Shown here in pieces: positions 1 to 24,143 of a DNA stretch of 64,000 bases; position 1 is the first letter of the stretch; every line of letters begins with the position of its first letter. The DNA lies in contig NC_086097.1 of the NCBI RefSeq assembly GCF_963921235.1, forward strand, positions 109,618,001-109,682,000. Direction: 5' to 3'. This DNA is from Mobula hypostoma. Taxonomy: Eukaryota. The notes under the pieces were generated by a model. It was not told where the DNA came from. It searched no databases and saw nothing but the letters and a program-made list of their open reading frames with translations. Both the position numbers and the translations under genes were made by a program.

Positions 1-264
1 CCTCCAGATGTTCTTCGGAGATACTTTTTGCTTTCTTTTTGATCATAATCCTCAAATCCTCCATGTTCTCTTTTGCTAGTCTTCGTGCCCTCAGCCATTC
101 AGCTGGGTATGCTGCCTCCTTCCTGACCAACATTTCTATGATGAAGTCCTGTTACTGAGGATCAAATATCATTACCCTCTCTCCTACAGAGCTAGTACAT
201 CTGCTTAAGACATATTAGCAACTTTCTCAAGTTATTTTCAAATAAACATTTAGTGTATTTTTAT

Positions 265-493
265 CAAAATTGCTGGTGAACGCAGCAGGCCGCAGCATCT
301 CTAGGAAGAGGTACAGTCGACGTTTCGGGCTGAGCCCCTTCGTCAGGACTTGATTGTAGACTTCAATCTCTTCATCTTGGCCTGGAACGTCGACTGCGCC
401 TCTTCCTAGAGATGCTGCCTGGCCTGCTGCGTTCACCAGCAACTTTGATGTGTGTTGCTTGAACTTCCAGCATCTGCAGAATTCCTCGTGTTT
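265..493. mobile_element. Penelope-like element (PLE) fold-back insertion 1: two inverted 3'-terminal arms
   Basis: 265-350 is the reverse complement of the PLE terminus and ~378-493 is the forward terminus ending GCAGAATTCCTCGTGTTT. Flanked by the direct repeat GTGTATTTTTAT at 253-264 and 494-505. Confidence 0.9.
314..350 (-). ncRNA. Minimal type I hammerhead ribozyme motif in PLE terminus
   Basis: Minus strand reads AGTC-CTGACGA-A-GGGGCTCAGCCC-GAAA-CG-TC-GACT: core boxes CUGAnGA and GAAA, stem I AGUC/GACU, GC stem II, GUC cleavage triplet. Confidence 0.75.
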
Positions 494-729
494 GTGTATT
501 TTTATGTCGACTTTGGATATTGCTACAGTTTTGATAATTTTTATATAAGTTAGCTATAGAAGGATGCAGGAGCTTTAAACAAGGTTGTTTATTCAAACTC
601 AGACAGCAAGGACCTCCCAGTAATTGGAGCTGACATAATGTCGTCACTGTATCTTTTATTATTACATTTCATATTCGCAGAAGAATTGTCCTGTGAGATA
701 ATCACGTTCATGGGAATATGCCAGAGTCA

Positions 730-2330
730 CCGGCATTTATTGTACAATTTGTTATTTTGCAGCAGCCGTACGCTGCAAACATAGTAATTAAAAAACTATA
801 AATTAAGTACATACAAAAAAGTTAAATTAAGTAAGTAGTACAAAAAAGAGGAAGAAATAGTGAAGTATTGTTCATGGATTCATTGTCCATTCAGAAATTG
901 GATGGTGGAGGGAAGAAGCTGTTCCTGAAAGTTTGAGTGCATGTCTTTAGGACCCTTTGCCTCCTACTGGATGGTAGCAACGAGAGAAGGGCATGTCCTG
1001 GGTTATGGGGGTCCATAATGATGGATGCCACCTTCGAGGCATTGCCCTTTGGAGGTGTCCTCGATGCTGAGGAGGCAAGTGCCCATGATGGAGCTGAGTT
1101 TACATCTTTATGCAGTCTCCTCATGACATATAGACACATCATGCTTTCTTTGTAATTACATCAATGTGTTGAGCCCAGGATAGATCTTCAGAGAAGTTGC
1201 CACCAGGAGCTTGAAACTGATCAGTATTCCACTCCTGATCCCTTAACAAGGACTGATGTGTGTTCCCTTGACTTCCCCTTCCTGAAGTCTACAATCAATT
1301 CTGGTCTTACTGATGTTCAGTGTAAGGTTGTTGTTGTGACACCACTCAACCTGCTGATTTATCTCACTCATGTATGCTTCACCACCACTAGCTAAATTTC
1401 TGCCAATAATAATTGTGTCATCAGAAAATTTATAGATGGCATTTGAGCTGTGCCTTGCCACACGGCTGTTGGTGTAGAAAAAGAACAGCAGTGGGCTAAG
1501 CATGCATCCACTCACTCAAAGCAATCCTGCAAGTGCTCCTTTTCCTCCCTCGACTTTGCAAAGTGTGGGTGTGGGATGGCACAGTAAATGTACTCGATGT
1601 TGGGCTAACAGTGGTCAGGTGTTCCATGGGTGATATGTTGTGGTAGTTATGTAGCGAATTCTTCAGGTTGATCTGGTTGAAATCTCCCACAGTGCATCAG
1701 CATACACTGTTTTGTGCCTGCTTATTATGGTGCTCAGATCCTCCACTGCCTGCCTGATGCTAGTTCGGGGTGGAATGTACACCGCTATCAAGATGATGGT
1801 GGAAAACTCCCTCGATAGATGAAACGGATGACATTTGACTGCTGGATGTTCCAGGTCAGGTGAGCAAGACCGAGATAGAATTGTCATGTCTGTGCAGCAC
1901 GAAGAGTTAATCATAAAGTATACTCCACCTCTTCCGCCTTTAAAAACTGAGCTGTCCTGTCTTTGTTGAGAATAGTGAAGTCATCAAGCTGCAGCGCAGT
2001 GTCCAAAAAGGCAGAGGATAGCCATGTTTCCTTGAAGCAAAGTACATAGCATTCCTTGATATCTCTACCTTGCTCTGTGGTCTTCAGTTTTACCTTCTAG
2101 AGACTGTACACTTGCCAAAAGGATTGGCAGGAATGGGGTCTAAATCTTCTGTGTTTCAATAGTACCAATAGACAAGCATGCCTTCTCTGCTTCCATTTTT
2201 TTAAAGAGGAACTGCACTTGCCAGCTGAGTCTGCAGTACAGGATCCGCTGATTTTGAGTATTGATATATTTTTTATAAGTCTTAAAACATTGTACCCATG
2301 ACTATGACTGTGGATTTCAGCTGTAGTGGT
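730..2330 (-). mobile_element. Rex1/Babar-type LINE, decayed (endonuclease, RT and C-terminal fragments)
   Basis: Minus-strand peptides SREFSTIILIAVYIPP, GDFNQINLK, KFSDDTIIIG and DPHNPGHALLSLLPS..RNSFFP, with many stops and frameshifts. Confidence 0.8.
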
Positions 2331-2739
2331 CCTAAATGGGAATATTTGATGATTCCCATCAGAGCCGCACACAAAGAGACATCTCTTATTAGTGTTACCT
2401 TGAAATCTTCACTCCTGCAAACATATTCAACCTCTTTTCCTAGTGTTCGTTGGCCAATTTTTGCCAGAGGAGTCAGATGTTACCAGAGTTGCAATCAGAG
2501 GAGACTTGCCCAAACTTTAATCAGATTCAGGCTCCTACCTTCATTCCTTTTTAAATTCCATTTGTGGTCAAACTGTTGATGCTTCCTTCTTTTGTACAGA
2601 ATGTGTAAGTTTCACCACGTAGGTCTGTTTCATCCTGCTGGCATTTTCAAATGGTTAATTTCTGTCTCTTCCTTTTTCAATCAGTCAGCACATCTTGCGT
2701 GCTACAGTTCACAAGGAAACATTGGACTGCATAGAGGGA

Positions 2740-3790
2740 GAGAGCTTAAAAGAAGTGAGCGGGGCAGTTGGCACACATTATACACCTCAATTCTCAAGGA
2801 TTGGATTGTGCATAATGAGCTACTTGGCAAGGACCAATAAAAAATTGTCAGGTTTAAGTGGAGTGGTCATTGTGTGAGTGGGCCAGTGTTAGAGTGGGGA
2901 ATTGAGGCTTTAGTGAGGAGAGGTGTAGGCCGTAGGTTGATATTTTTCATTTTTTATTCATTCTTTCTTTCTTATTGCATATATAGAACAGTTGGAATGC
3001 CAGGCTGGATAGTGGAATGTTCCTAGAATGTTCCTGGATAGTGGTAGGTCTTACACCATGAGCAGTAGGGTACTGAGGAGTGCAGTAGAACAGAAGGATT
3101 TGGTAATACAGATACATAACTCATGGAAAGTGGTATCACGGGTAGATAGGATGATAAGGAAAGCTTTTGGTGCATCAGTCTTCAGAAATCAATGAACTGA
3201 GTACCAGAGATGGGATGCTATGTTGATGTTTCAAGACTTTGCTGAGACCTAATTTGGAGTATTGTGTGCAGTTTTGGTCACTTACCTACAAGAAATATGT
3301 AAATAGGATCAAAAGAGTACAGAGAAAGTTTATGAGGATGTTGCCAGGTGTTGAGGACCTGAGATATATGGAAAGGTTACATAGGGTAGGAATTCAGTCC
3401 ATAAAACGTTGAAGATTCAGGGATGTTTTGATACAGGTATACAAAATTATGATGGATATACTGTAGATAAGGTAAATGAAAGCAGACATTTTCCACTGAG
3501 TTTGGGTGAGACTACAACTGGAGGTCATGGGTTAAGGGTGAAAGGTGAAATGTTTTAGGGAAACATGAGGGGGAATTTAATCACTCACAGGATGGTGAGA
3601 GTGTGGATCTGGCTCCCAGTTCAAGAGGTGGATACGAGGTTGATTTCAATATTGAAGAGTAATTTGGATAGGTACATGGATGGGAGGGGTATGGAGGGCT
3701 GGTGTACAGAGTGCTAGGGTCTGGGTGCAGGTCGATGGGACTAGGCAGATTTATGGTTCGGCTGAAGGGCCTGTTTCTCTGCTGTGCTTC
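2740..3790 (+). mobile_element. CR1 LINE fragments (5' piece plus ORF2 3' end)
   Basis: Similar to other CR1 copies in the window (ttggagtattgtgtgcagttttggtc; gaggtcatgggttaagggtgaaaggtgaaa; 3' end gaagggcctgtttc). Confidence 0.75.
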
Positions 3791-4819
3791 TCTAGCACTC
3801 ACCATCTCAGAGGATCGATTGGCAATATATATTTATCACAAATCCATGAACCACTACATTATCTTGACTCTATCTTCCAGTCGGCCGTGGTCCTTATTCT
3901 TTCAGTATCTTTGTTCCACCACAGCTGTTCAGATGAAGATAGTTTCCACCCAAAACTTTCCATTTTTCCTCAAACATGGTTTCCTTTCTATACTGATTAT
4001 TAAAGTTCTGAAATGTGTTTACTTTGCACTTCTACTCACTTCTTTATTTCTATATCTGTCTCTCATCCTGATCATTTTGTCTTTGGGTTCCAACAAAACC
4101 CAACTCTCCTTGAGCAACAAGATCTCATCTTCTAACTTAGTATGCTTCAGCCTTCTAGATTTAACATTGAACATAATACAGTACTGTGCAAAAGTCTTAG
4201 GCACATATACTGTATGTAGCTAGAATGCCACGTGCTAGTGAGGCCAGAATTAAGAAGATCATACAGTTTAACACTCCTGTGGGAGTCTATGAAAATACTG
4301 TATGTAGCTACAGCCACCAATTACCTTGTGATTTTAGTCTCCAAGGCCGATGTGGGGGCATCCTTCAAGAGGATACGCTTATGGTCTAACAGGTTGTTCG
4401 GTTAAGGCCAAAGTGCAGAGAGAAAGAGAGCGGAGGACACTGAACCAGATCAACAATTCACTGACTTTAATGAAAACTGTGCAGAAAATAACATAATAAT
4501 GCTAGGCCAACAGGGCTGTTAACTAGAACTGTCAGGCTAATGCTGATACAGCAGCTCAGATGTAATAGCTTAATGCTAAATGAATATTGCACCTGAACAG
4601 CATTAGGCTAAACAGTAGTCATCTTTCCTGGAAGCAGAATGATGGTAAGTATAGCATGTAGATGTTGCTCTGTTTTTGGTCAAGTCTCAACAAGACTGGA
4701 AAGTGAGGAAGAGAGTTAAATACCACGACAATGAAACACTAACTGCCTGGAATGTGAATACTCACGAGTGTGATTGCTGAACCTGTTTGGCAGCTCACCC
4801 ACGAGGGCGCACAGAGTGC

Positions 4820-6100
4820 GTGATTGTGCCACTGGCCCAGATGGGGTACTTGGCCGAGTAGTAAAGATCTGTGCTGATCAACTCGCTGGAGTGTTCACCG
4901 ATATCCTTAACCTCTTACTTTGGCAGTCTGAGGTACCCACCTGCTTCAAGCAGGCTTCAGTTATACTGGTGGCAAAGAAGGATGTGACAACTTGCGTCAA
5001 TCCACTGATCCACTGAGATGAGTGCTTTGAGAGGTTGGTGATGAAACATATCAATTCCTGTCCAAGAAGCCCCTTGGATCCACTCCAATTTGTCCACAGG
5101 CACAACAGGGCCAGAGAAGATGCCATCTCATTGGCTCTTCATTCAACCCTGGAACATCTGGACAGCAAAGATGTTGTCCAGCAAACATCAGGATGTTCTT
5201 TATCGATTACAGCTCAGCATTAAATACCATCTTTCCCACAAAACTAATCAGTAAGCTTCAGGACTTGGCCTCAATACCTCCTTGTGCAATTAGATTCTCG
5301 ATTTCCTCACTTGCAGAACCCAGACAGTTCGGATTGGCAACAACATCTCCTCCACAATTTCCATCAGCACAGATGCACCACAAAGCTGTGTGCTGAGCTG
5401 CCTGCTCTGTACTTACGACTGTGATGCTAAGCACAGCTTCAATACCATCTTTAAGTTTGCTGTCAACACCATTGTTGTTGGGTCGAATCAAAGTTGGTGA
5501 CAAATCAGCATACAGGAGGAAGACTGAAAACCTGGCTGAGTGACGCACAGCAACAACCTCTCACTCAATGTCAGCAAGACAAAGGAGCTGACTATTGAGT
5601 TCAGGAGGAGGAAACCGAAGGTCCATGAGCCTGTCCTCATCAGCGGATAAGAGATAGAGAGGGTTGGCAAATTCCTTAGTGTTATCATTTCAGAGGATCC
5701 ATCCTTGGCCCAGGATGTAAGTGCAATTACGAAGAAAGCATGGCAGTATCTCTATTTCCTTAAAGTTTTTGAAGATTCAACATGACATCCAAAACACAAC
5801 TTCACTTACCCAATACTGAACAATTCCCACAACCAATGGACTCACCTTCAAGGATTCATCATCTCATGTTGTCAATATTTATTGCTTATTTATTCATTTT
5901 TTTCTTTCTTTTTGTATTTGCACAGGTTGTTGTATTTTGCACATTGATTGCTTGTTTGCTCTGTTGGATGTGGTCGTTTCATTGATTCTATTGTATTTCT
6001 TGGATTTACTGTGTATACTCGCAAGAAAACAAACCTCATGGTTGTCCATGGTGACATAATGCATTTTGATAATAAGTTTACTTTGAACTTTGTACTTTGA
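4820..6100 (+). mobile_element. Rex1/Babar-type LINE, RT region to 3' tail
   Basis: GPDGVLGRVVKICADQLAGVFTDILN, LDPLQFVHRHNR..DAISLALH, FFIDYSSALNTI; (ctttgaa)n tail near 6080-6100. Confidence 0.85.
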
Positions 6101-7190
6101 AACATTACTTCCATTACTCACCATAGATACTGCCAGATCAGTTTCTATTTCAGATTTTCAGCGCTAGCAGCTTTATTTTGGTTTAAGATTACAGAACTAG
6201 CTAATACTTTTAGCAACTCTCACTCATTGTCGGCTCCAATTTGCCACAATGATCCTTCACAGGAAAAATCAAGAACTGATCCTTCTTCCTTTGCAAAAAC
6301 TGTTCCATTTACCACTTCCAATTCCTCTCCAAAGCCTTTGAACATACTGCAGCCTCAAAATTTCCCTGGAAAACCATCCGAATTTCTCTAGTTGAGGTTT
6401 CATCCCATTCAAAAACAATTCAAAGGCATAAATGAAATCCATTGAGACCGTCGCACATGTTTGACAACACTACAATGTCTATTGACTGCAGGGTGTGTGG
6501 GACTGCACTCATCTTATTCCATTCCAAACGATCAAGTTGCTAGAGAATTACCTCTGGTTGTCCTCAAGGGCTCAATCCCTGCCCTGAGATTCCTCATCCA
6601 CAGGCCAATGTTTGTTGATATAATCACAGAGTAGAATGTCAGTTTCTTCACATATGGTATGTAGACAACACCCGTAGCAATTTCCCTTTTGACTCCCTAA
6701 CAGTTTTAATTAGTCGATCTGCCTGTCTAATATCAGCAAGCAGAAACTTACTTCAAGACTAACATCAGCATTATTTAAAATTCTGCTCTGCAGTTGGCAA
6801 CCACATCCATTTTCCAGGCAATTATCTGAAAAGACCTCTACTCTTCACAGTCCTGAACTTTAAAAGTTCAGAACAATTTATCAGTGCCATTTCTGCTCTG
6901 CCCTTTTCTTCTTCCACAGCATCAGCACCTGCAGAAGTTCACCTCTTGTTTTAACTTTCGTTGTTGCTCTACCTTTTGCTACCTTAGGACTTGACCATTG
7001 TAATGTGCTCCTAGTTATCCTCCCTGGCTCTATTGTTTCTCAGCCTGAAGTAACCAAAACATGCTGACCACCATCCTTCCCTACTCACATTCTTTTCATC
7101 CATTGCTACTCCATTTGCTGAGTACTTTTGCTTCCTTATTAAGCTATATGCTTTAATGGAATTAAAGAGAAAAAACAGAAGAAAAGGAAA

Positions 7191-8022
7191 ACAACAGGAA
7201 TTCTGCAGATGCTGGAAATTCAAGCAACACACATCAAAGTTGCTGGTGAATGCAGCAGGCCAAGCAGCATCTCTAGGAAGAGGTACAGTCAACGTTTCAG
7301 GCCGAGACCCTTCGTCAAGACTAACTGAAGGAAGAGTGAGTAAGGGATTTGAAAGCTGGAGGGGGAGGGGGAGATGCAAAATGATAGGAGAAGACAGGAG
7401 AGGGAGGGATAGAGCCGAGAGCTGGACAGGTGATAGGCAAAAGGGGATACGAGAGGATCATGGGACAGGAGGTCCGGGAAGAAAGACGGGGGGGGGGGTG
7501 ACCCAGAGGATGGGCAAGAGCCCCAAACAGTCCTTCCAGGTGAGGCATCACTTCACCTGTTGGAGGAACAGCGCCTTGTATTCCGTCTGGGTAGCCTCCA
7601 ACCTGATGGCATGAACATTGACTTCTCTAACTTCCGCTAGGCCCCACCTCTCCCTCGTACCCCATCTGTACTCATTTTTATGCACACATTCTTTCTCTCA
7701 CTCTCCTTTTTCTCCCTCTGTCTCTCTGAATATACCTCTTGCCCATCCTCTGGGTCACCCCCCCCTCCCCGTCTTTCTTCCCGGACCTCCTGTCCCATGA
7801 TCCTCTCGTATCCCCTTCTGCCTATCACCGGTCCAACTCTCGGCTCCATCCCTCCCCCTCCTGTCTTCTCCTATCATTTTGCATCTCCCCCTCCCCCTCC
7901 AGCTTTCAAATCCCTTACTCACTCTTCCTTCAGTTAGTCCTGACGAAGGGTCTCGGCCTGAAACGTCGACTGTACCTCTTCCTAGAGATGCTGCTTGGCC
8001 TGCTGCGTTCACCAGCAATTTT
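7191..8022. mobile_element. PLE fold-back insertion 2
   Basis: Left arm 7191-7520 is an inverted copy of part of the right arm (~7735-8022). The centre holds GIY-YIG-region fragments. TSD GAAGAAAAGGAAA at 7178-7190 and 8023-8035. Confidence 0.92.
7936..7972 (+). ncRNA. Minimal type I hammerhead ribozyme motif
   Basis: AGTC-CTGACGA-A-GGGTCTCGGCCT-GAAA-CG-TC-GACTG. The inverted copy at 7286-7322 has a mutated core (TTGACGA). Confidence 0.78.
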
Positions 8023-9274
8023 GAAGAAAAGGAAATGTTTTTACTCTGTACTAGAGAACATAGTGATATGGTACAGGAAGTAATCATCCTTGATTAATAT
8101 AAATGTACACACTCATCAGCACAGATAACATAATGGTTAATATGCTGGTCTTGCCAGAGTTCAATTGCTCTAGAGACATAAATCTCCTGATGGCTGCTGG
8201 AGAAGTTAAATTCAAGTACGTAAATAAGGCACTCAGATAAATAATCACAACATGACTGGATTTTCATTAAAAAAAAATTAGGGTAGAAATCTGCCATCCT
8301 TAGCCTGTCTGACCTGTAGATAACTCCAGATCCACAGGTATGACTGACATTTAACTGCATTTTGAATAAATAGGCAGTGTACGAGCTTGTATGTCAATCA
8401 GTTTTCACTGTGAGAACATATTTCACGAGTATAGATGTCAGAAAATTACAGCTCATATTTTTATCTACAGTTTAAGTATCTTGGCCTCACAGGGAAGGGA
8501 GTTCATGGCCTTTCTCCTGTGAGTGAGCAGGAGATGTGCTGCTTTCAGAAGTTCCATTGCATAACTCTTAAAGAAATGGGACAATCTCAGAAAGCGACTC
8601 TGCATGTACATGATGGGTACATCTCAGATGGGAAGTGGGAATGTTTACCAACGTGCTTCAGAGGAACATTTCCAGATACTTTCATGGTCTTTATAATTCC
8701 TTACAGCACCCAGAAACCTTTCCTTCCAATCCTGACCAACTACACAACCCTGATTTTAATAGTTTCACCTAATGCTGCTGAATCCTTACCTCATGGAATT
8801 CTCGCTCTGACTCTCTTCCTTTCTCATCCTTCAGGGTACTTAATGCATCTGTTTTGACTAAACTTTCACTTATCTATCTCAAGATATTTTTTTAGAAACT
8901 GGCTGACAAAACATTTTCACTCTATAAGCAATTGTTTTGCAATGTCACTGTATTCACTATATTACAAATGTCAAGCTCAGAGGTTTTTATATTTGCTGGG
9001 TGGAATGCAGATCTTGGTTTTGAAACTGAAAAATTCACTGAGTTGCTAAAAGTACCCATGTGACCAGTTGAACTCCCACAACAGAGCTCTGAGATATTGG
9101 GAGAAAAAGGGCAGAATGCAGCTATAGACAGGGATTCTAGTTACTCCAAATTTATGATCTACTTCTAAAACACATTGTTAGCCAATGCATGCAGTAATAG
9201 TGCATTGCATTACAAATCGGTAGTGCTTCATAAATGAAGCATTGCTATGTAGTTTTTATTTTATTTTACTTTCT

Positions 9275-9560
9275 TTTGAGATACAGCATGGAGTAGGCCC
9301 TTCTGGCTCAACAAGCCATGCTGACCAGCTATCCATCCATTTAATACCAGCCTAACCACAGGACAATTTACATTGACCAATTAACCTACGAACCAGTACG
9401 TCTTTGGACTGCGGGATGAAACTGGTCACCTGTTGGAAACCCATGCAGTCATGGGAAGAATGTACAAACTCTTTACAGATGGTGCTGGAGTTAAATTCCA
9501 AACTCCGGAACGCCCTGAGCTGCAATAGCATCGCTCTAACAGCTATGCTACTGTGGCACC
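9275..9560 (-). mobile_element. V-domain (HE1-like) SINE
   Basis: Minus strand has the V-SINE core GAGTTTGTACATTCTTCCC...CAGTCCAAAGACGTAC and a CR1-like 3' end GAAGGGCCT. Related copies at ~39830-40110 and ~40190-40322. Confidence 0.7.
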
Positions 9561-10136
9561 TCCTTCATGCAGTGAAAAAGCTTTTCTTTTCTATTCAAAA
9601 TGGATCTTTTTAGCTACGTTTCCACAGGGCTGCTATATGAACACTTGCTTGCATTGTGTTTATCTTGTCGTGCATGTGTTTTATTTCAATCAGTTGTCTT
9701 TATTGGTTCCAACTCCAGTCAAAAGTTGAACAAGTAAGTCTGTGATTACTGCTCCTGGTTGTTATTCATTCTGCATGTTGAAGGAAGACCAGACTTGGTC
9801 TGAAGCGTTCTTTCCAAGGATCAAATAATTTGCCAATAACTGTCTCAAGACAGGAAAAGATCATTTTAGCAATACCGTACACGAGTACAATGAGGACTTC
9901 CCTACTTTCTGGTTTTCTCCATTCCTGATACTTCAAATACAATGCTATAGGAAACTTACATTTTATCTCAAGAGAGTATCTGTTTTATGTTAGTCTTGCT
10001 ATGAAAGGCAAATTTGACTTGCAATAAAGGAGGCTGGTATGAAGAACTGTGTTTTACAAATGTGATTAAAATTATGTAACAACAGCACTAACAATGAAAC
10101 ACCCTCAATGGTAATTCTAAGGTTTACTGTCATTAC

Positions 10137-10180
10137 CTTCTTCCTGTGGGCTCGGAGGCCTGTCTTCATATACAAGAGAT
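10137..10180 (-). CDS. ITPRID1: Candidate internal coding exon (44 nt), SLVYEDRPPSPQEE, following the ITPRID1-like exon
   Basis: Strong acceptor (poly-T then acag) and donor AAG|gtaatg. The phase 2 start fits the phase 2 end of exon 14368-14416. It lies in non-repeat sequence. Confidence 0.5.
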
Positions 10181-11615: not shown

Positions 11616-11651
11616 TACTATAAGTTACAAATAAATAAAAAAGGAAATAAA

Positions 11652-12537: not shown

Positions 12538-12544
12538 AACCAAA

Positions 12545-13320: not shown

Positions 13321-14367
13321 AGCCCTCGATACACAGTGTGCTCCTCATCCAATCACACTTCCTTCTAATTCCAGTCTCATGCTTAAAATGCAAAGATCAA
13401 AGACAGCACAGTTCCTAGTTCTGCAGAGAAAGAGGTCATATAGGAATTCTGTTGAAAGGACAGACTTTGATGCATAATGAAATGGGTACTGTGTTGGGAA
13501 GTGTAAGAAAGATATTTTGTTTACAGTTATTGCGCACAGAATCAGAATCAGGTTTATTGTCACTGACATAAGTCATGAAATGCGTTTGCTTGTGGCAGCA
13601 TTACAGTACAATAGAAAGGAAGTAGAGGGCACCAAATAGCAATTCATGTATGTTCAATTCTGTAACCCTGTATTATACAGGCTGAAAACAGTGTTAAGCT
13701 AAATGTGCTAGACCCCACCCTAGCATAACTTTTTCTCCTTTACCAGGTCTACCAAGGGCTTGTTATTATGTCCGTCCCACAAAGAAGAATGGTGTATGAG
13801 TAATGATGGATCCTGAGTTACTGGATCCTGATGCTATGCCCCAGACAACCCGATCGTTGTTGGTAATGCATGCTGTCAAAGGCCTTTTCCTCAAAGACCA
13901 TTTCTGAATGTTTCTGATTAGATTTGTTGAACAAAAGTTGAAGCACATTTTAATTATTCAGAAAGAAAAAGTGAGAATAAAAATGCATCCATTGAACAGC
14001 ATATTTAACTCAATGCAAGATAACTAAAGTAAAGATAAAAGAAACCACTTATACTTAATCTAACCCAATCCCGGAGACAGAGCAAATATGAGATGGGCCA
14101 GAACCTGATCTTCTGTATGTTCCATTATTTCCTTCTACACAGGAAAGCTGAGCTACATCAAACAGCAGTGTGGATCCACTTGGAACCGCCAGCCGCCATG
14201 AAGCATGGTCCACCCTAATACCCTGGACTCTAGCTGTGCCTCAGTGGGGTTTCAGGAGCAGCTTCCCCATTATCATCATGGGAAGGTTTGGAAAGAACAA
14301 GTAGAAGATGGTTCTCACTGGTATTTTTGCATAAAGAGATTTTTAGTGGTAGGAAATGATTACTCAC

Positions 14368-14416
14368 GTGTAATTACTGTTGAGCCAATCTTGAATACTC
14401 TGTTGCTTGTAGTCCC
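14368..14416 (-). CDS. ITPRID1: Candidate coding exon (49 nt) GDYKQQSIQDWLNSNY, resembling the ITPRID1/CCDC129 N-terminal motif
   Basis: Acceptor gtgctcccatag and donor AC|gtgagt. The peptide matches my recollection of human ITPRID1 DSKQESIQQWLDSGF (D-x-KQ-x-SIQ-x-WL-x-S). The identification is from memory, not a search. Confidence 0.58.
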
Positions 14417-14959
14417 CTATGGGAGCACACGATAGGTACAGATTGAAAATACCGTTCAATTCAATTCTTCTGATCTCATCCAGTCTTCTATGGCTACATT
14501 TAACTACATGAATAATAATTTGAGAGCTTCCTCCAGCATTGCCCCAACCTAATTTATTAGCAGTCCGATCAAAGGGAGATAAGGAGAACTCCAGCCACAT
14601 GTATTTGACTGTGAAGTAGCAGCGGCCATTATTAAAACATAACTACCGAGCTTTAGAAAAAAATTAAAATACAAAATGTCTAAGGGGGAGAAAATAAAGC
14701 TTGTGAAATAATGACATCTTACCTGGAGCAACAGAATCACACAACACAAAAAATAGCCTTATGGTCCACTGAGTCTATGCTAATCATCAAGCACCTGCTT
14801 CATTCAGCCCAAGTTACCATCCACTTGTCCTCACACTGGGGTTAACCTTGCGAATCTTCAGGACGAGGACATGAAGCCTGCTCAGTCGAGCCACAAGGCA
14901 GTATGCGAACTTGCTGTCACCCTAGAGAGGAAGGAATGCTATTGGGAAAAATCTTCCAG

Positions 14960-15150
14960 CCAGCCTCCTTCCCCTCCCCCAATCTTTTTATTGTGGCATC
15001 TTCTCCCTTCCTTCTCAGTCCTGAAGAAGGATCTTGGCCTGAAACATCGACTATCAATTCATTTCCATAGATGCTGGCCGAGCCGCTGCGTTCCTCCAGC
15101 ATCTTGTGTGTGTTTCTCTGGGTTTCCAGAATCTGCAGACTTTCTCATGT
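14960..15150 (+). mobile_element. Older PLE terminal fragment with hammerhead-like motif
   Basis: CAGTC-CTGAAGA-A-GGATCTTGGCCT-GAAA-CATC-GACT at 15016-15052, followed by the usual atagatgctg...ccagcat terminus. Confidence 0.7.
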
Positions 15151-15199
15151 TTGCCATAACCAAATCTGTCTAGACACTCCAGGGTTTAACGATGGGATC

Positions 15200-16650
15200 T
15201 CAGTCACAGAGTCACAGAGCACTAGGGCACAGCAACAGGCTGTTTGTCACATCGAATCCGTTGTTCAGCCTGGTCCCATCACTCACACCTGGACCATAGC
15301 CCTCCATACCCCTCACATTCACTCACTTACTCAAACTTCTCTTCTTCATGTGCCTTGTGCTTTACACACTTGGGCGATCATGGCTCTCCACATTGAACAA
15401 TCCCTCGCAGCGTCAATGATGCCTCTTAAACTTCTCTTAAAATCTGAAAATGAACCAGCATCCACCACTTTCTCTGGCAGCTTATTCCTCACTTTCACTA
15501 CCCACTGAGTGATACAGTTACCCTTAAGTATTTCACTTTTCACCTTTAATCTGTGACCTCTAGTTCTGGTCTCACCCAACTTCAGTGGAAAAAGCCCGCT
15601 TGCATTTAACCTATCTACACCCCTCATAATTTTGTAGACCTCTCCCCTCATTTTCCTACATTCTAGTGAAGTGGTCCAAATCTGTGATTTATAATGGCTG
15701 AATTCTCACAGTAGGAAACATAGCTACACTGATGCAATGCATGGTGATGACATCAAAACAGGATCAACAACTATTTAAGAACAGCAGCTAAAGAATTTGC
15801 ATTTTCCTTAGTACCAAGAACCCAGTTAGTAAGTTTGCCGATGACACAATAGTCAGTAATGTCATAGACAGTGATGATGGTTATCAGGATCTGCAGAAGG
15901 ATCTCGATCAGCTGGGTAAGTGAGCCCAAGAAAGGCAAACAGAGGAGTTTAATTTGTGTTGTTTGCATTTCAGGCAAGACAAATGAGGGTAGGTAGGACT
16001 TTCAGAGTGAACAGTAGGGCTCTGGGAAAGTTTTGGAACAGAAGTACAAAGAAGTACAAAGACATGGTTGCCTGGAAGTCGGTGCCAGAGGTAGACAGGG
16101 TGATGAAGAAGGCTTCTGAGATGCTGGCCTTTATCAGTCAGGGTATTGAGTACAGAATTTAACATACTATGTTGCAGATGTACAATGTTGGTGTGGATGC
16201 ATTTGGAATATTCTGTTCAGTTTTAGTCACACTGCTATAGGAAAGGTGCCATTAAATGCAGAGTACGCTTATGGGAAGCGCAAGTACCTCCTGGGCTCGA
16301 TGGACTGAGCTATGGAAGAAAATTGGCCAGTTGAGACTTTCTCATCAGAACGTACGAGAACGAAGGGTGAACTTACAAAAGTGTATAAGATCACGAGGGG
16401 CATAGATGAGGTCAATACGCACATTCTTTTTCCCATGGTTGGCAATCAATAGGTTTAAGTTGGGAGGGAAGAGATTTAATAGGAACCTGAGGACCCCGAA
16501 ACTTTCGCCCAGAGGGTGGTTAGAATCTGAAAGATTTAGAGGCATATGAGTCAAACATGGACAAATTGGACTAGCTTGGATGGGAATCTTAGTTGGCCTG
16601 GATGACTTGGACTCGAGAGCCTTTTTCTGCTCTGTATGACTCCATGACTA
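15200..16650. mobile_element. Two CR1 LINE 3' fragments (15200-15670 minus; 15830-16650 plus)
   Basis: EVYKIMRGVDR..TRTRGHRLK on the minus strand; SKFADDT (aagtttgccgatgacac) through the 3' UTR on the plus strand. Confidence 0.8.
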
Positions 16651-16986
16651 ACACACCAGAGGAGGAGGAAAACCAACCAAGGAAGTCAACCAGCACACTG
16701 CATCAGCATTGTCACAACAACAAACTGCCAGGAGAGTTTATTGGGTTAAGCAGCATCTGCGGAGGTTAAAAGGGATGCATTAGGACTGAGAGTGTAGAGA
16801 GCAGATAGCCAGTATGAAGAGATAAGAGGAATAGGTGAGAGATGGGTGTGTGATGATAGAATCAGGGGAAGTTGGGAATGATCAGCAGAACACTGAATTT
16901 TATCATTTCAACTAACCCACTTACTAAATAGAATCAAGTAGTTTTCCAGCATCTGCTGGGCAGCAGATTGTGTTTTGAATTAGTAT

Positions 16987-19900
16987 TGTACCACTCTTGG
17001 GGGGAGGGGCTGCATCTCTAATAACCAGCACTGTTTATTGCTCTTGTGTTAAAATGCTTTTGTAGGATCATGATGGGAAGTTCCACTTCATTTATTGTTA
17101 CATTTTAACTTGGGTTATACAGTTATTCGCTTGTGTATTTGTGGGTCACCCTGACAGTAACCGGGGTGTGTGATGGTCATCTCCCCTGTCTGGAGAGACT
17201 GGTTGGGTTCACTCTCCCAGTCATGGTGCCCGTCTGTTCTGTGTTTATCACAATAAAACGGTTCGAGTTTCCTTGTCTGACATACTGGACCAAATGCTCG
17301 CCACATTGGTGTCAGGAATGGAATGCGGGAGATTGAAGAGCTACAACATCGGACAGTGTTTTAAACCTGGGGAATAAGACGAGGGACTGAGCAGTCTACC
17401 TCCCCCCGTACCCACGAGCAGGGCTCAAGCAGACGAGATCCGGAGGGAGGACCTGGGATCCGAGCATTGTGCCTTCCCAGGGAGCCCCGACGGAGCGAGT
17501 GTATCCAGGCTCCCCAACCTGGGGACAGAGCAGAGTGCATCACTCGTCTCCATCGTGACCTGCACCAAGACACCATAGCTATAGGAGGATGGGGACCATG
17601 GCAGACGCCACCAGTGCAAGAGAAGGATCAAAGGGCCTCGACGATTAGCACCTCAGTGTCCACCCTGAAGCTCCCCAGATACAACGGTACCAGCCACCTG
17701 GAGTCTCACCTGGCGGAAGTCAATCTTGCCGCATGGCACAACGGGTGGAGCCCCACCGAGACAGCAGTGCACCGTGCCCCGGCACTGGAACGAGATGCCC
17801 TGGGAACCAAGCATTGTGCCTTCCCAGGGAGCCCCGACGGAGTGAGTGTACCCAGGCTCCTCAACCCGGGGGACAGAGCGGAACCTCACCTGGCGCATGG
17901 CACAACGGGTGGACCACCGAGACAGCGGTGCACCGTGCCCCGGCACTGGAACGAGATGCCCTGTGGGCCCTCCTCGACCTAACGCCGGCGGAGCTGCGTG
18001 ACTACGGGCCCTCGTAGTGATGCTGGAGCGGCGTTTCGAGCAGAGGCCGATGTCGGAAGCAATGAGGGAAGAACTGTGGAGCAGACGGCGCCGTATGGGA
18101 GGAAGCCTGGGGGCACTAGCAGCTGATCTCCGCCACTGTGCTCGGCATGGCTACCCCCAGTTCCCTCCCGCGGCCCAGGAAGAACTTTCCCTCCACGCCT
18201 TTGTAAAGGCGCTGACGCCAAAGCGCCTTCGGCAGCATGTTCGCCTGACGTCACCATCATCACTGGACGAGGCGGAGAGGGAGGGCAGAAGCAATTTTAG
18301 CCTCTCAAGGTGTTTCAGCGTCGCCCCCCACCAGCGAGCCCGGGCTTGTGTCACCGAGGCTGAGGAGGAAAGTGACGAGGAGGAGCCCGTGAGACAAGTC
18401 CGACTAGCGCCACAGGCCATGAAACGATCTCTGCTACCGGTGCGGTGAGGCAGGTCATTTGCAGACATCCCACTCTGCAAAAACTCATTTTAGGGAGATC
18501 TCAACTTCATTTCAGGGAGGTCTCAACCAGAAGCCTCAACCTCATAGCAGTCTGTGTCAATGAATTTGTTAATTTTGCAAGACATCAGATTCACAAGTGT
18601 TCTGTGAGACAGCTCACTTCTGAATTCTGTCTTAATGTGCCATGTTCACAGCTGCCTTGGTTGATGAGCAGGCATAGTTTTTAGCTATTTCTGAATCAGA
18701 AAACATTTTCCTGAATAGCTTTCCTGTGTGCTTACACAGCTGGAATGGCAGCTTATGCTCAACGATGGAAGATGTAAAGTACACCGCAGCTCTAGTGACC
18801 TTCTCTGTCAGACTTTGGTTTTCTGCTGAAAAAAACTGTGAAATACTTGAGCAGCCTTCCCTGCGCTTAGCCTCCTTAATATGTTGTGGTCCCTTGAAGA
18901 AATAAAAGCATAAGGTGTATCCTTATTACAGGTGTGCGCCACTTAACGACTGATCGTATATACATCAGTAGTCACACACACACACATTGCCTGCAATAGT
19001 CGGGATCAGAACTTATTTTCTTACATCGAAATGGGGGATTTTAAATGAGTGATTTAGAAGTTCCGTATCTTCAAGTTCAAGTTTATTGTCATCTGGCTGA
19101 TTGCCCACAAACGAAACAATCTCTGTCCGGACCACGGTGTAGCCACAATACATACATCACGCACACCACATAAAACAATATATTACCATATTATTTAATA
19201 AAGTGTAATTCAAAATGCATATAAAGTGCGCAGCACAGGTAAAGAGTTCGCTGTCCTAATGACAAGACCTTAGTGGGGGCCGGGTATTCATTAAAATCGT
19301 TTTTTCTTCTGAAAACGGCTGCGCTTAAACCCAGCCCATCACGGGCTTCGATGTACCAGTAAGTGAAAGTGTTTCAGGACAAAAATCCCGAAGAATTTGC
19401 TTACTGCGAGCGTGTTTTCAAAGATGTCTTAGCGGATGACTTTGGAATTTCTCTCCAATTTAAATCCTGCTCTAACCCCCTTTAAGACGCCAACGCGCCC
19501 TGTCCGTATAGGACAGCCTCGCGTAGTCCGGTTGTCACTGCCAGCCTTGGGAATGTCTTCACCAGGGTACTTCACCGACAGTTGTTCGGATCATTTCAGC
19601 GTCATTACGGACGGCAGTAACTGAACTGATGGACTATGGAAGAGAGAGAGAGGTCGACTGTAAAACCCGCCTACAGAGAAAAACTGATAGGTCTACTTAG
19701 CACAAAGAGAGATCAAGCAGGATTCATTCATTTTCTTTCTTTCTTTCTTTCCCTCTCTCTCCCTCTCTAAAAAATTGATTTCCGGGATATTGTATACGAT
19801 TTGCGGGCATCAGGGAGCCGCTATCGAATGCAGGAGACTCCCGGAACTCCCGGGAGAGGTGGGATGTCTGCATTTGGCCCAGGACTACCCCGCCCTGGCA

Positions 19901-20309
19901 TCACGCCACAGCCCAGGAGCAGCAGAACCCCTCCGGGTGGGCCGTTTGGGTGAAGAGCAAGGCTTACACGTGGACTGCCTGCGTGGTGAAGAACATCAGG
20001 TGCCGTATGTTGGTGGACACGGGGTCAACCATCACTACCATCTGTCCCGGTGTTCTCCCCAGCACGGACCAGCCATCCCCACCTGGGTGGACAACGACAC
20101 TGGTCCGGTTGGCTACGGTCACCGGTGACTGTGCAGCTATGCAAGGGAAGAGGAGGCTGCGCATCGCAGTGGGGAACAACGTGTATGAGACTGGTTAGGT
20201 TCTCTCTCTGGGTCATGGTGCCTGGTCCTTTTAGTATTTATCACAATAAAGCAGTTGGTGTGTTTAACAAGCTTTCTCGTCTGTCATTATGGCCCAAATG
20301 CCGGCCACA
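16987..20309 (+). mobile_element. Gypsy LTR retrotransposon, internally deleted (5' LTR, PBS, gag, protease, partial 3' LTR; no RT or integrase)
   Basis: 5' LTR TG..CA at 16987-17305; tRNA-Leu-like PBS TGGTGTCAGGAATGGAAT at 17307-17324; gag peptides KLPRYNG..HNGWS and LAADLRHCARHGYP..AFVKAL; CYRCGEAGH knuckle; protease LVDTGS; 3' LTR part ~20187-20309; GTAT on both flanks. Confidence 0.88.
18462..19870 (-). mobile_element. hAT-like DNA transposon deletion derivative nested in Gypsy gag
   Basis: TIR CAGACATCCCAC / GTGGGATGTCTG; 6-bp TSD CATTTG (18456-18461, 19871-19876). Minus-strand transposase remnants KVTRAAVYFTSSIVEHKLPF..LFRKMFSDSEIAKNYACSSTKA, fused to C-terminal KTEFRSELSHRTLVNLMSCKIN..CYE. 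Confidence 0.85.
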
Positions 20310-20314
20310 GTATT

Positions 20315-20955
20315 AGCTATTTCTCCAAATGGGGAAATAAAGATTAACTTGCAGGTTGAGTTGGTGGTAAGGAAGGCAAAATTTCAAGAGGACTAGAATA
20401 TAAAAGCACGTAATGCTGAAACATTATAAGCACTTGGAATATTGTGAGCAGTTTTGGGCCTCTTATCTAACAAAGGATGTGCTGGTATGGTAGAGAGGGT
20501 CAAGAATGATCCTGGGAATGTGAAATGTTGAATGGTCCGGTGGGCCTGTACTCGCTTGAGTTTAGAAGAATGAGAGGGGATTTCGTTGAAACCTGTTGAA
20601 TATTGAAAGGCCGACATCGAGTGGAAGTAGAGAGCTTGGTTCCTATGGTGGGGGAGTCCAAGACCAAAGGGTACCGTTTCAGAATCAAAGGATAATCCTT
20701 TAGAACAGATGAGGAGGAATTTTTCCTAGCCTGAGGATGGTGGATCTGTAGAATTCTTTGCCCCAGGCAGAAATGGAAGCTATGTCATTGGGCATATTTA
20801 AAGTGGAGTGCGATAGGTTCTTGATTAGTAAAGGCATCAAAGACTATAGGGAGAAGGCAGGAGAATGGAGTTGAGAGGGATAATAAGTCAGCCATGACGG
20901 ACTAGCAGGGCAGACTTAGTGGGCTGAGTGGCCTTATTCTGCTCCTGTGTCTAAT
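20315..20955 (+). mobile_element. CR1 LINE 3' fragment (second subfamily)
   Basis: tactcgcttgagtttagaagaatgagaggggat..., ending in ggccttattctgctcctgtgtct. A related copy lies on the minus strand at 47640-48035. Confidence 0.75.
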
Positions 20956-21089
20956 GGGAAAGCAGTACAGAGTTTTTATGTATTTACAAATTTAAGTAAG
21001 CCAATTGGTTATAGAAATGTACAGCACAAATACAGAGCATAGAATGTACTTTATTGTGCATCTCATCCACACCAATCACGATGCTTATC

Positions 21090-22270
21090 TCATCATCATC
21101 AGGTGCTGTGCCCAGTTTGAGCTTTGACTGCCATGGCCCACACACTCCGGTTTCGTGTCGTGGATCAATTCATTTGTATTCATTTCCAGTTCTCTGGCTG
21201 TTGTCTCCATCATCTTTTGTCTTTGCCTTCCTCTTGCTTTCTTCCCTTCCACCTTTTCCATAATTACCGTGCATTCTAACTCCTCTTTCCTAATCACATG
21301 TCCAATGAAGTTACGTTGCCTTTTCATGATGTCATTCATTATTTCTCTTTTTGTGTTTGTTCTGTTCATGACATCCTCATTAGATATTTATTTCGTCCAT
21401 GATATTCTTTGCATCCTCCTCAAAAACCACATCTCTGCTGCTTCAATTCTTTTCCTCATGTTACTGGATATTGTCCAACATTTTGAGCCATATAACATAA
21501 CTGGATAAACGTAACGTTTCAGTACTCTGAGGCAGATTGTCATGCCTAGTTTAGTGTTGGTCAGTATACACTTTATTCTCGTAAAGGTGTCTTTTGCCAT
21601 CCCTATTGTTCTTTTGATGTCCATGTCGCATCTGCCATCTGATGTCACCCAGCTTCCTAAGCAGCAAAAGTTCTGTACCTGTACTTGTTTTATGTCTTCC
21701 CCATTTAGTTTCAGCCTGCAGATAGGGTTCTCCTTCTTTTTGGATATCACCATACATTCTGTCTTTTTTGCAATTGACAGATAGACCCATTTTTGAACTT
21801 TCTTCAACAACTATATCAATTAAGTTTTGTAGTTCTTCCTCCATACTTGCAATTAACACAGTGTCATCCGCATATCTTAAATTATTGATGTTTTCACCGC
21901 CAACTTTGATTCCCAAGATGTCTTATTCTTTGTAATATTGTCTCACTGTACGCATTAAACAAGTCAGGGGAGAAAACATACACTTGTCTAACACCTCTCT
22001 TGATTTTCATAACTTGACTCACTTCTCCATCTATTCTTACAGCGGTAGTTTGTTCCCAGTACAGATATCTGATTAGGCGGAGGTCTTTTGAATCTAGGTC
22101 TAGAGTTTCCTGTAATATTTCAAATAACTTATTGTGCTTCACTTTATCAAATGTTTTTGTGTAGTCGATAAAACAAACAAACAAATCTTTTTGCACTCCA
22201 ATTGCTCATTCTGGTAGTATCCTTAACATCAATACCACGTTTCTTGTACCTTTGTCTTTCACAAAACCAC
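21090..22270 (-). mobile_element. RTE-clade LINE, 3' part
   Basis: FVCFIDYTKTFDKV, GENINNLRYADDTVLIA, RIEAAEMWFLRRM, GKVEGKKARGRQR-like C-terminus; (ATG)n tail at ~21090-21100. Confidence 0.9.
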
Positions 22271-23114
22271 ATGCTTATCTACTCTAACCTAACTTACCTA
22301 TTTTAGCCCTCTATTGCTTTCTTATCCGATGTGTTTTTAATGTAACAACAAAATGCTGGAGGAACTTAGCAGGTCAGATGGCATCTATGGAAATGAATTA
22401 ACAGTGGATGTTTCCAGTTGCTTCAGGACTATTAAATGTAATAACATTTGTCTCCACTACTCTCTCTCATTTCACCCTCTGTGTGGAAAAATTTATCCCT
22501 CAGATATGCTTTAAATTTCTCCACTCTTGCCTTAAGTCTGTGCCTTTTAGTCCTAGTGTCCTCTGTCCTGAGGGAAGTTTCTGACCGTCTATCCCATCTT
22601 TGCCTTTCATAATTTGAAAATATCTATAAGGTTGCCATCAGCCTGCCACCTTTCAATGAGAATAAACCCAGCCTATTTCCTCTCTCCTTATAATGACTGC
22701 CCTCAATTTCTGTCAACCAGCCGGTAATTTCACTGGCTGTTTCTCCATTGCTACCATATCCATCCTGTATACAATACTGTACTCTAAATGTGTTCTAACC
22801 AATGAATTAGAATGAACTCCTTCTTTAACATTGCCCTGTCCTTCAACAGATATTGTAAATAGAATTCATCAGGACTCTGGCAGAATCCTTAATATATTTG
22901 TCATCCTTTGTATGATGAACTTTATCATAGCAGTCCTTACATCGTCTTTCATTAAATTTCAAAGATTAACTTTGCCTTTGCATGCAAAATTAGCAAGTAA
23001 ATGAAATAAATAAATTCAAACAACAGGAATTCTGCAGATGCTGGAAATTCAAGCAACATACATCAAAGTTGCTGGTGAACGCAGCAGGCCAGGCAGCATC
23101 TATAGGAAGAGGCG

Positions 23115-23151
23115 CAGTCGACGTTTCAGGCCGAGACCCTTCGTCAGGACT
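23115..23151 (-). ncRNA. Minimal type I hammerhead ribozyme motif (intact)
   Basis: Minus strand reads AGTC-CTGACGA-A-GGGTCTCGGCCT-GAAA-CG-TC-GACTG. Confidence 0.78.
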
Positions 23152-24028
23152 AACTGAAGGAAGAGTGAGTAAGGGATTTGAAAGCTGGAGGGGGAGGGGG
23201 AGATGCAAAATGATAGGAGAAGACAGGAGGGGGAGGGATGGAGCCGAGAGCTGGACAGGTGATAGGCAGAAGGGGATACGAGAGGATCATGGGACAGGAG
23301 GTCCGGGAAGAAAGACGGGGGGGGGGTGACCCAGAGGATGGGCAAGAGGTATATTCAGAGGGACAGAGGGAGAAAAAGGAGAGTGAGAGAAAGAATGTGT
23401 GCATTAAAAAGAGTAACAGATGGGGTACGAGGGGGAGGTGGGGCCTAGCGGAAGTTAGAGAAGTCAATGTTCATGCCATCAGGTTGGAGGCTACCCAGAC
23501 GGAATATAAGGTGTTGTTCCTCCAACCTGAGTGTGGCTTCATCTTTACAGTAGAGGAGGCCGTGGATAGACATGTCAGAATGTCAGAATGTCTATTCCCA
23601 TTCTGACATGTCTATCCACGGCCTCCTCTACTGTAAAGATGAAGCCACACTCAGGTTGGAGGAACAACACCTTATATTCCGTCTGGGTAGCCTCCAACCT
23701 GATGGCATGAACATTGACTTCTCTAACTTCCGCTAGGCCCCACCTCCCCCTCGTACCCCATCTGTTACTCTTTTTAATGCACACATTCTTTCTCTCACTC
23801 TCCTTTTTCTCCCTCTGTCCCTCTGAATATACCTCTTGCCCATCCTCTGGGTCACCCCCCCCCGTCTTTCTTCCCGGACCTCCTGTCCCATGATCCTCTC
23901 GTATCCCCTTCTGCCTATCACCTGTCCAGCTCTCGGCTCCATCCCTCCCCCTCCTGTCTTCTCCTATCATTTTGCATCTCCCCCTCCCCCTCCAGCTTTC
24001 AAATCCCTTACTCACTCTTCCTTCAGTT

Positions 24029-24065
24029 AGTCCTGACGAAGGGTCTCGGCCTGAAACGTCGACTG
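24029..24065 (+). ncRNA. Minimal type I hammerhead ribozyme motif (intact)
   Basis: AGTC-CTGACGA-A-GGGTCTCGGCCT-GAAA-CG-TC-GACTG. Confidence 0.78.
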
Positions 24066-24143
24066 CGCCTCTTCCTATAGATGCTGCCTGGCCTGCTGCG
24101 TTCACCAGCAACTTTGATGTATGTTGCCTGAAATAAATAAATT

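Follow-up and report, generated by a model that had tools for sequence, protein, structure and literature searches.

Inverted insertions of a Penelope-like element in Mobula hypostoma suggest that two target nicks prime at different sites on one RNA

Three fold-back insertions and their element

The 64,000-nucleotide stretch of the Mobula hypostoma genome analyzed here (the window) carries three insertions in which two pieces of one element lie in inverted orientation inside a single target duplication, which raises the question of how both arms were written and why they end at different places. The initial annotation had described fold-back insertions with A/T-rich duplications of 12, 13 and 15 bp, one arm reaching the full terminus and the other ending ~30–45 nt earlier. 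At all three coordinates we confirmed tail-out inverted pairs with exact duplications, in which one arm reaches the GTTT end and the other ends 30–46 nt before it. Insertion 1 lies between exact copies of GTGTATTTTTAT (12 bp; 253..264 and 494..505) and consists of a short arm on the reverse strand (265..350; unit positions -133 to -46, with 2 nt at its end assignable to either element or duplication), a 24-nt filler that is not element-derived (351..374) and a long arm on the forward strand (375..493; -118 to 0). Its arms differ in subfamily haplotype, and the short arm carries a T variant. Insertion 2 lies between copies of GAAGAAAAGGAAA (13 bp; 7178..7190 and 8023..8035). Its long arm is on the reverse strand (7191..7520; -330 to the GTTT end, its final 2 nt likewise assignable to either) and its short arm, which extends further upstream than the long one, on the forward strand (7559..8022; -508 to -47), joined to a forward-strand piece of 44 nt of endonuclease-coding sequence (7517..7560; -776 to -733) that is an internal jump or deletion. 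Insertion 3 lies between copies of TGAAATAAATAAATT (15 bp; 23002..23016 and 24129..24143), with a reverse-strand long arm comprising the GIY-YIG coding end and pLTR (23017..23582; -564 to +1) and a forward-strand short arm (23594..24128; -569 to -34) that differ at 1 of 534 aligned bases. A further copy of this family in the window, on the forward strand (33977..36199; 2.2 kb with RT end, linker, GIY-YIG and pLTR), is truncated at the 5' end and not inverted; it has a long-type end, and no flanking duplication of at least 11 bp was found around it.

As judged from its encoded domains, the element of which the fold-backs are stubs is a Penelope-like element (PLE) of the Neptune/Nematis type. 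Pattern searches gathered more than 50,000 ends of the family genome-wide, and an intact ORF of 1016 aa is present at 4 of 20 read-through loci. This single ORF has DKG and YIDD motifs and, as in EN+ PLEs, combines an RT (PF00078 at 507–669, E 2.6e-5) with a C-terminal GIY-YIG endonuclease (PF01541 at 919–993, E 1e-3), both matches falling under Pfam's curated cut-offs. Upstream of the 3,514-bp unit stands a repeat of its 3' portion, variable in length, which gives the partial tandems (pLTR) of EN+ PLEs, and their inverted 5'-truncated copy and one-sided tail of 30–40 bp are likewise present. The accessible text of PMC8557442 defines Neptune and Nematis by a CX2-5CxxC zinc finger in the RT-EN linker and a CCHH motif in EN; we found both, as a CX4CX2C finger (CKQNKCYTC, residue 883) and as CSRC-GLLYIGET at 926 with histidines downstream. 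Membership in Penelope/Poseidon, from which this linker is absent, was rejected on that ground. Among the at least 120 homologues listed, none was a named reference of either Neptune or Nematis. The insertion bias toward simple repeats proposed for Neptune was not seen in the duplications, which are unique sequence with 68% A+T and a flanking motif. At -133..-98 (7936–7971 and 24029–24064 in the short arms of insertions 2 and 3) lies a hammerhead-like core of the minimal type I with a palindromic stem III, matching a hammerhead consensus. The accessible text of PMC6765202 describes such minimal cores, and an Rfam search of the element gave no hammerhead hit.

Two end sites and a symmetric target

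Among 11,701 short core-to-core fold-backs counted genome-wide, the tail word stood on one side in 5,218 and on the other in 5,315; at most 59, counted with looser core words, had both arms tailed, against about 2,370 expected by hand arithmetic if the sides were independent. Of 94 called fold-backs, 92 were long/short, none was short/short, and the 2 long/long cases both lacked a duplication. A two-anchor subset comprised 45 long/short, 1 long/long and no short/short fold-backs, next to plain non-inverted copies with 22 long and 30 short ends, and a held-out core-anchored set was long/short in 28 of 28 instances, with duplications. The asymmetry noted at three insertions is thus a rule of the family, and two primings, one per nick, that yield one long and one short end are well supported. 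Seventeen plain copies with a duplication carry the short end alone; since either site is used by itself in non-inverted copies, nothing sets an order of the nicks. Duplications of at least 9 bp flank 85 of the 94 pairs, compared to 0.3% of 300 mismatched flank pairs, which argues against chance neighbors. A fold-back master copied ready-made as a unit would explain why two insertions at different sites (L101 and L135) have one exact inversion joint in common; that joint occurs just twice in the genome, however, and the 73 listed joints are diverse. As a general route, chance neighbors and a master are refuted, and we give them almost no credence.

The initial annotation had taken the long end for the full terminus of the element. 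That position lies inside the unit, 36 nt ahead of the ATG, and because 393 copies read through it into the ORF, it cannot be the terminus; 27 of 67 clean long junctions have unambiguous element bases past position 0, up to +8. Ends form two clusters, at about 0 to +8 (long) and about -38 to -29 (short), placed on two similar GU-rich motifs. Arm end points are not random, as 88 of 124 short ends fall at -38..-29; another 22 fall at -48..-42. To this minor cluster belongs the stop site said to be common to the short arms of insertions 1 and 2, which agrees to within 1 nt (last possible base at -44 and -45).

The same annotation had proposed terminal priming at the first nick, which would be at the RNA 3' terminus, and internal priming at a microhomology of 2–4 nt at the second, a route in the style of L1 twin priming. 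The short ends of the three insertions do have AT, GA and TGAA in common with their duplications (TGAA after a mismatched base), and an overlap of 1 nt and 2 nt is also present at the long ends of the first two insertions. Overlaps were compared with three nulls and a held-out set; of 85 short ends, one that was misaligned (L058) was left out. In line with the proposal, the asymmetry is real, short ends overlap by at least 2 nt more often than expected (47 of 124 vs 23.6), and a few insertions partition the RNA between their arms. Yet the excess at long ends is similar (40 of 125 vs 23.8), overlap is absent from 41 of the 124 short ends and amounts to 2–4 nt in just 40, and short ends keep to a 10-nt cluster instead of falling wherever homology occurs. 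Pooled means at the two ends were 1.44 and 1.10 nt, not significantly different from each other (Mann-Whitney p=0.10), against a null of about 0.75; in the held-out set, overlap was slightly greater at short than at long ends (1.75 vs 1.10 nt, p=0.09). Microhomology is therefore a weak bias at both ends rather than the rule of the short arm. Given that both start sites are internal and that the arms usually overlap rather than partition the RNA, terminal priming followed by microhomology priming is largely refuted, and we regard it as very improbable. One to three bases of primer-template pairing may help a little at either site and would not be required.

Duplications are 13–15 bp long and define a 14-base target with two-fold symmetry, flanked beyond each nick by one and the same motif, approximately AAAMCMAAC (M = A/C). 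Support for the motif was p=2e-22 by leave-one-out and p=4e-7 and 7e-8 in the held-out set. The motif is also found at both half-sites of 44 plain copies. The A/C-rich half-site resembles the complement of the GU-rich start motifs. The additional idea that these motifs pair with the half-sites and aid target choice is not supported: flank composition was unlinked to two terminal variants, with no position reaching p<0.12 in a comparison of low power (30 vs 74 insertions).

Templates and source of the two arms

Both arms appear to be templated by RNA. In 33 of 73 two-piece fold-backs, the short arm extends beyond the 5' limit of the long arm and was therefore not copied from the long cDNA, and the tail is confined to the long arm. 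The arms come mostly from one source haplotype: at diagnostic sites they agreed in 60 of 67, 59 of 66, 70 of 76 and 57 of 61 comparisons, with 29, 37, 54 and 37 expected. A mixture estimate assigns about 84% of pairs to one haplotype and about 16%, insertion 1 included, to discordant haplotypes. Gene conversion was rejected as the cause of arm identity because rare variants are mostly unshared between arms (14 vs 156).

In 11 of the 73 pairs both arms have the same 5' end (1.1 expected), at such odd places as -628/-628, -159/-159 and -79/-79; these joints are palindromes or small hairpins, and in 21 more the long arm reaches further. Such pairs bear on a reading with one priming only, at the long site, after which the cDNA would fold back, copy itself and join the other nick near -35, or the endonuclease would trim the intermediate. 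Both the asymmetry and the arms' identity in sequence would follow from this directly, and DNA snap-back fits the 11 equal-ended palindromic joints equally well. Against it stand the short arms with sequence missing from their long arms and the duplication-flanked copies with a short end alone. Moreover, the target-like motif within the element, about 7 nt upstream of each end, is in direct rather than inverted orientation, an arrangement at odds with symmetric trimming. We consider a single priming quite unlikely; it is excluded as a general route and survives only for the equal-ended subset.

The exclusivity of the two ends, the symmetric motif and the common source of the arms point to two primers on one RNA, and we think it probable that a symmetric enzyme nicks both strands and that each nick primes at a different start site on one RNA molecule. 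Such an enzyme, with two-fold symmetry and probably a dimer, would cut the target at positions about 14 bp apart on the two strands. Reverse transcription would begin from both nicks, at one of the two start sites for one nick and at the other site for the other, leaving one arm with the downstream end and its partner with an end about 35 nt further upstream. Each cDNA would then run toward the 5' end of the RNA or stall on the way, and the 3' ends of the two would be joined, at a short palindrome where both halted at one place. Extension of one nick alone would give a plain copy with either end. In one insertion that is 99% identical to the reference copy (L103), the long arm halts at -28 and restarts at -1237, whereas the short arm runs from -37 to -1267; L156 has a similar jump. 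A stop within 16 nt of the start of the insertion's own short arm is seen in only 6 of 84 long arms, the remainder overlapping, and very short pieces are no more frequent among long arms than among short arms. Arm length thus shows no excess of stops at the short site, and displacement of the first cDNA must be assumed: the RT writing the long arm would in most cases push the short-arm cDNA aside and would sometimes halt or jump there. This two-primer account is drawn from the fossil DNA of the family.

Two primings could also occur on two RNA molecules held in an asymmetric dimer, each subunit with its own site. This would fit the exclusivity, the symmetric target and the discordant pairs, and would allow overlapping arms without strand displacement; the haplotype concordance, in turn, may equally reflect two RNAs from one dominant source locus. 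Two RNAs do not, however, predict equal 5' ends at odd places or long arms that skip about the stretch of the short arm (L103, L156), and they leave the exclusivity without a natural reason. We consider this reading unlikely.

Relation to described retroelements

The layout (inverted pLTR, one-sided tail, duplication) and the existence of two RT start sites are already published. Typical EN+ PLE insertions are described with inverted pLTRs, a duplication and an optional tail of 30–40 bp at one end (Pen2a_Av, PMC3846280; PMC8557442), the one-sided tail being ascribed to self-priming (PMC3846280) or endonuclease resolution (PMC8557442). The insertions studied here share with them the head-to-head pair in one duplication, the tail on one arm, the partial tandems and the palindromes at some joints. 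In the accessible text of both papers, however, the tail is 'optional' or 'often' one-sided, whereas here one-sidedness is nearly exclusive, the duplication is 13–15 bp and the short arm is often not derivable from the long one.

The closest biochemical parallel is PAc (Poseidon, Anolis carolinensis). According to the accessible text of PMC11167929, both strands are nicked and extended in vitro, two internal RT start sites delimit the tail, and the protein is modelled as a dimer. There, the start lies in a stem-loop downstream of the hammerhead, priming is independent of homology and no difference in start site was seen between strands. Two-strand priming and two internal sites bounding the tail would be common to PAc and the Mobula element, as would priming that does not require homology and a dimeric enzyme. 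The start sites differ, lying before the ATG here and about 111–118 nt into the ORF in PAc, as does the target motif, a symmetric A/C-rich pair here and ATT in PAc. The text available does not ask whether the two strands of one target use different sites, nor does it assign the two sites to the two nicks of a single insertion, and the in vitro work it describes ends before second-strand steps. Long/short exclusivity, twin priming and a palindromic target consensus were not found in the accessible PLE literature, nor were half-site motifs placed symmetrically at the two nicks or same-source arms; relevant material may be contained in Arkhipova 2006, Evgen'ev and Arkhipova 2005, Pyatkov 2004 and figures S1-S2 of PMC11167929.

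The origin of the inverted ends and one-sided tail has been a question for about two decades, and since the shape is already described, the gain lies in the mechanism rather than in a new system. In LINE-1 twin priming, which Ostertag and Kazazian reportedly described in 2001, two target ends prime one RNA and leave an inversion inside one duplication, and L103, L247 and L173 partition the RNA in that way. Unlike LINE-1, the Mobula element shows no poly(A) 3' priming; its second site keeps a set distance of about 35 nt to the first rather than being chosen by complementarity to the target, and its arms normally overlap. Use of one RNA for both primers, as in LINE-1, is consistent with the same-haplotype pairs, equal 5' ends and two skip cases, as two RNAs from the same source would also be.

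For PLEs in general, it is a plausible extension, though somewhat less likely than not, that target priming is concerted, symmetric and double. In the manner of a homing or restriction nuclease, a dimer would recognize inverted half-sites with a 14-bp spacing, and each of its active sites would engage one of two repeated stem-loop motifs, 35 nt from each other, on a single RNA; the class-wide inverted pLTR and one-sided tail would then be the direct footprint of the normal reaction, not an accident. If so, an RT related to telomerase would write DNA from both cut ends at once, in contrast to LINEs, in which first- and second-strand synthesis are sequential. With tens of thousands of insertion events and intact ORFs in this genome, three rules open to measurement (each nick with its own site, a symmetric target with 14-bp spacing, same-source arms) lead to a specific experiment.

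A minor feature of the window concerns the short arms of insertions 1 and 2, which, as first noted, both read CAGCAATTTTG. This is a sporadic T variant at 1.0% (924 vs 88,618) with no link to arm type. It was rejected as a mechanistic mark of short arms, being present in long and short arms alike, and it shows no enrichment among early short ends (2 of 7 vs 17 of 101). The post hoc chance of two T variants within one window is about 0.002.

Fold-back insertions of a Penelope-like element in the window

The initial annotation had described three fold-back insertions, and these were placed correctly: at window positions 265-493, 7191-8022 and 23017-24128 (insertions 1, 2 and 3), arms joined head to head, their 3' ends outward, are enclosed by an exact duplication (12, 13 and 15 bp, respectively). 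Full-length units of the element at other sites in the genome measure 3,514 bp and carry a single 1016-aa ORF, which is intact in 4 out of 20 loci fetched. The encoded motifs (DKG, YIDD, a CX4CX2C linker, and CCHH) point to Neptune or Nematis rather than Penelope/Poseidon as its clade, given that PMC8557442 takes the linker and CCHH to indicate the former; the nearest named homologue among the matches listed is from bamboo shark (72%). Numbering the repeat unit so that position 0 is the final T of the GTTT 'terminus', we found a minimal hammerhead-like core at -133 to -98 for which an Rfam search of the element gave no hit; hammerheads in the partial-tandem end repeat (pLTR) are described in PMC6765202. 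Exact genome-wide matches numbered 51,369 for the tail word and 88,618 for the core word. Several copies that carry an intact 1016-aa ORF (L239, L242, L246, and L250) are 98-100% alike, indicating that the family was active very recently.

In the window insertions, the long arms, which carry the tail, end at 0 to +1, and the short arms end at about -45, -45 and -33, respectively. The arms of insertion 3 include the end of the GIY-YIG coding region. In insertion 1, the arms are separated by filler (window 351-374) that is not element-derived; 16 nt of it equal window 1283-1298 (reverse strand), but other window repeats match too. Insertion 3 directly adjoins an older, diverged relative of the same element. 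Such relatives (65-80% diverged) lie at window 24156-24671, 50900-52121, 15045-15139 and 32079-32282, and an inverted joint is present in the one at 50.9-52.1 kb as well.

Long/short asymmetry and a symmetric target

Across the window and 258 loci, with overlapping loci removed, 212 insertions were called: 94 fold-backs, 117 plain (non-inverted) copies, and 1 other. A duplication of at least 11 bp flanked 85 of the 94 fold-backs, as against 0.3% (at least 9 bp) among 300 mismatched flank pairs. In this set, much of which is anchored on the tail, 92 fold-backs were long/short, 2 were long/long (both without duplication), and none was short/short. The part of it anchored on both words had 45, 1 and 0 fold-backs in these classes, and its plain copies comprised 22 with a long and 30 with a short end. 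A held-out set for which the two cores alone served as anchors (28 of the 50 fold-backs listed, the remainder being already in the first set) was long/short in 28 out of 28 cases, with duplications present. Among 11,701 short fold-backs matching both cores genome-wide, the tail word was on one side in 5,218 and on the other in 5,315, and on both in at most 59 (~2,370 expected under independence). Eight two-tailed loci were fetched: three were long/long without duplication, four had long/short outer ends with duplication, and one gave no call. Since the tail word is intact in 97 out of 102 long arms, the counts alone allow up to ~5% short/short pairs; none was seen. The long/short asymmetry is a rule.

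The target is symmetric. Duplications are 13-15 bp long in 102 out of 125 cases and richer in A+T than their flanks (68% vs 60%). A single A/C-rich motif, roughly AAAMCMAAC (with A at positions -8, -7, and -3 and C at -5 and -1), flanks the duplication on its two outer sides, the two occurrences being inverted relative to each other. It withstands leave-one-out analysis (p=2e-22), was confirmed in held-out data, is alike at long and short nicks, and also marks the two half-sites in 44 plain copies. This is the footprint that would be expected from a two-fold symmetric nuclease, and PMC11167929 presents a dimer model for its protein; the accessible part of PMC12910113 holds nothing on targets. 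The half-site motif looks like the reverse complement of the GU-rich motifs found immediately upstream of each start site (unit about -50 to -30 and -10 to +5). No covariation between target flanks and the element's terminal variants was found, at low power.

Two internal end sites and microhomology

What had been annotated as the full terminus is internal: 393 copies continue past position 0, through the 36 nt before the ATG, into the ORF, and at 27 out of 67 clean long junctions the element sequence extends past 0, reaching as far as +8. The unit therefore holds two internal end sites ~35 nt apart. Their GU-rich motifs are similar, and both occupy the 3' side of hairpins predicted without a shuffle control. 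This agrees with PMC11167929, in which the anole enzyme initiates at two internal sites that delimit a 'tail' and lack homology to the cut DNA.

The initial annotation proposed terminal priming at the first nick and internal microhomology priming at the second. An excess of microhomology over chance does exist, but it is weak and extends to long ends. In the first set, mean target overlap was 1.29 nt at short and 1.11 nt at long ends (p=0.49 between them), against 0.66-0.78 in three nulls (p~0.002 each). Pooling both sets gave 1.44 nt (n=124) and 1.10 nt (n=125; p=0.10), with overlaps of at least 2 nt at 47 short and 40 long ends (~24 expected); 41 out of 124 short ends had no overlap and 40 had 2-4 nt. 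The held-out set alone leaned toward short ends (1.75 vs 1.10 nt, p=0.09), leaving room for a small difference. Short ends fall at -38 to -29 in 88 and at -48 to -42 in 22 out of 124 cases: the short end is set by position, not homology. We consider the proposed route very improbable.

The T point variant makes up 1.0% of cores and occurs in either arm. Two copies of it, at window 265-276 and 8003-8024 (8 kb apart), are both found in short arms whose ends lie near -45; the post hoc chance of this is ~0.002.

Origin of the arms

Among 73 two-piece fold-backs, 33 have a short arm that extends further upstream than its long partner, 21 have one that extends less far, and in 19 the two come within 5 nt of each other. 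Because the tail is confined to the long arm, neither arm of those 33 can be a DNA copy of the other, and both arms of these were RNA-templated. In 11 out of 73 pairs, the arms end at the same 5' base, in a palindrome or small hairpin (1.1 expected). Snap-back or endonuclease trimming is left for equal-ended cases only, and we regard it as unlikely; PMC8557442 ascribes the frequent one-ended tail to the endonuclease. Subfamily variants are common to both arms far above chance, and by a mixture estimate ~16% of pairs, including insertion 1, are discordant. Two RNAs on an asymmetric dimer is a reading to which we give only slightly more credence than to snap-back or trimming. Homogenisation of the arms is ruled out by 14 shared vs 156 unshared rare variants.

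We moderately favor a model in which both target nicks would prime reverse transcription, each at a different one of two fixed start sites on one RNA, presumably held by a dimer, and the two resulting cDNA ends would be joined, possibly with strand displacement. At L103, the long arm breaks off at -28 and picks up again at -1237, and the short arm covers -37 to -1267; L156 has a similar skip. Counting against a simple collision picture, the end of the long arm falls within 16 nt of the point where the short arm begins in only 6 out of 84 cases. Most 5' ends cluster at -100 to -150, near the 5' edge of the hammerhead-like core, and may mark either the start of the RNA or a stall.

The overall shape of the insertions and the existence of two start sites are already known for Penelope-like elements; the long/short exclusivity, symmetric target, and two-primer reading were not found for them in the literature searched, key subscription papers being outside its reach. 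The feature is real and places quantitative constraints on the unsolved integration mechanism of these elements.

Two fold-backs at different sites (L101:794-4478 and L135:793-4415; G000 C1, ~1.4 Mb apart) have in common one exact inversion joint that is absent elsewhere in the genome. L101 is long/long without duplication and L135 long/short with duplication; the joint may reflect ectopic conversion, or a parent-daughter relationship between neighboring copies. Seven further loci (L217, L232, L238, L303, L305, L307, and L209) are short partial tandems in which an arm jumps from near -135 into the ORF start and then continues, which suggests that partial tandems originate from template jumps at the 5' end of the RNA; the outer ends of these loci mostly keep the long/short rule.
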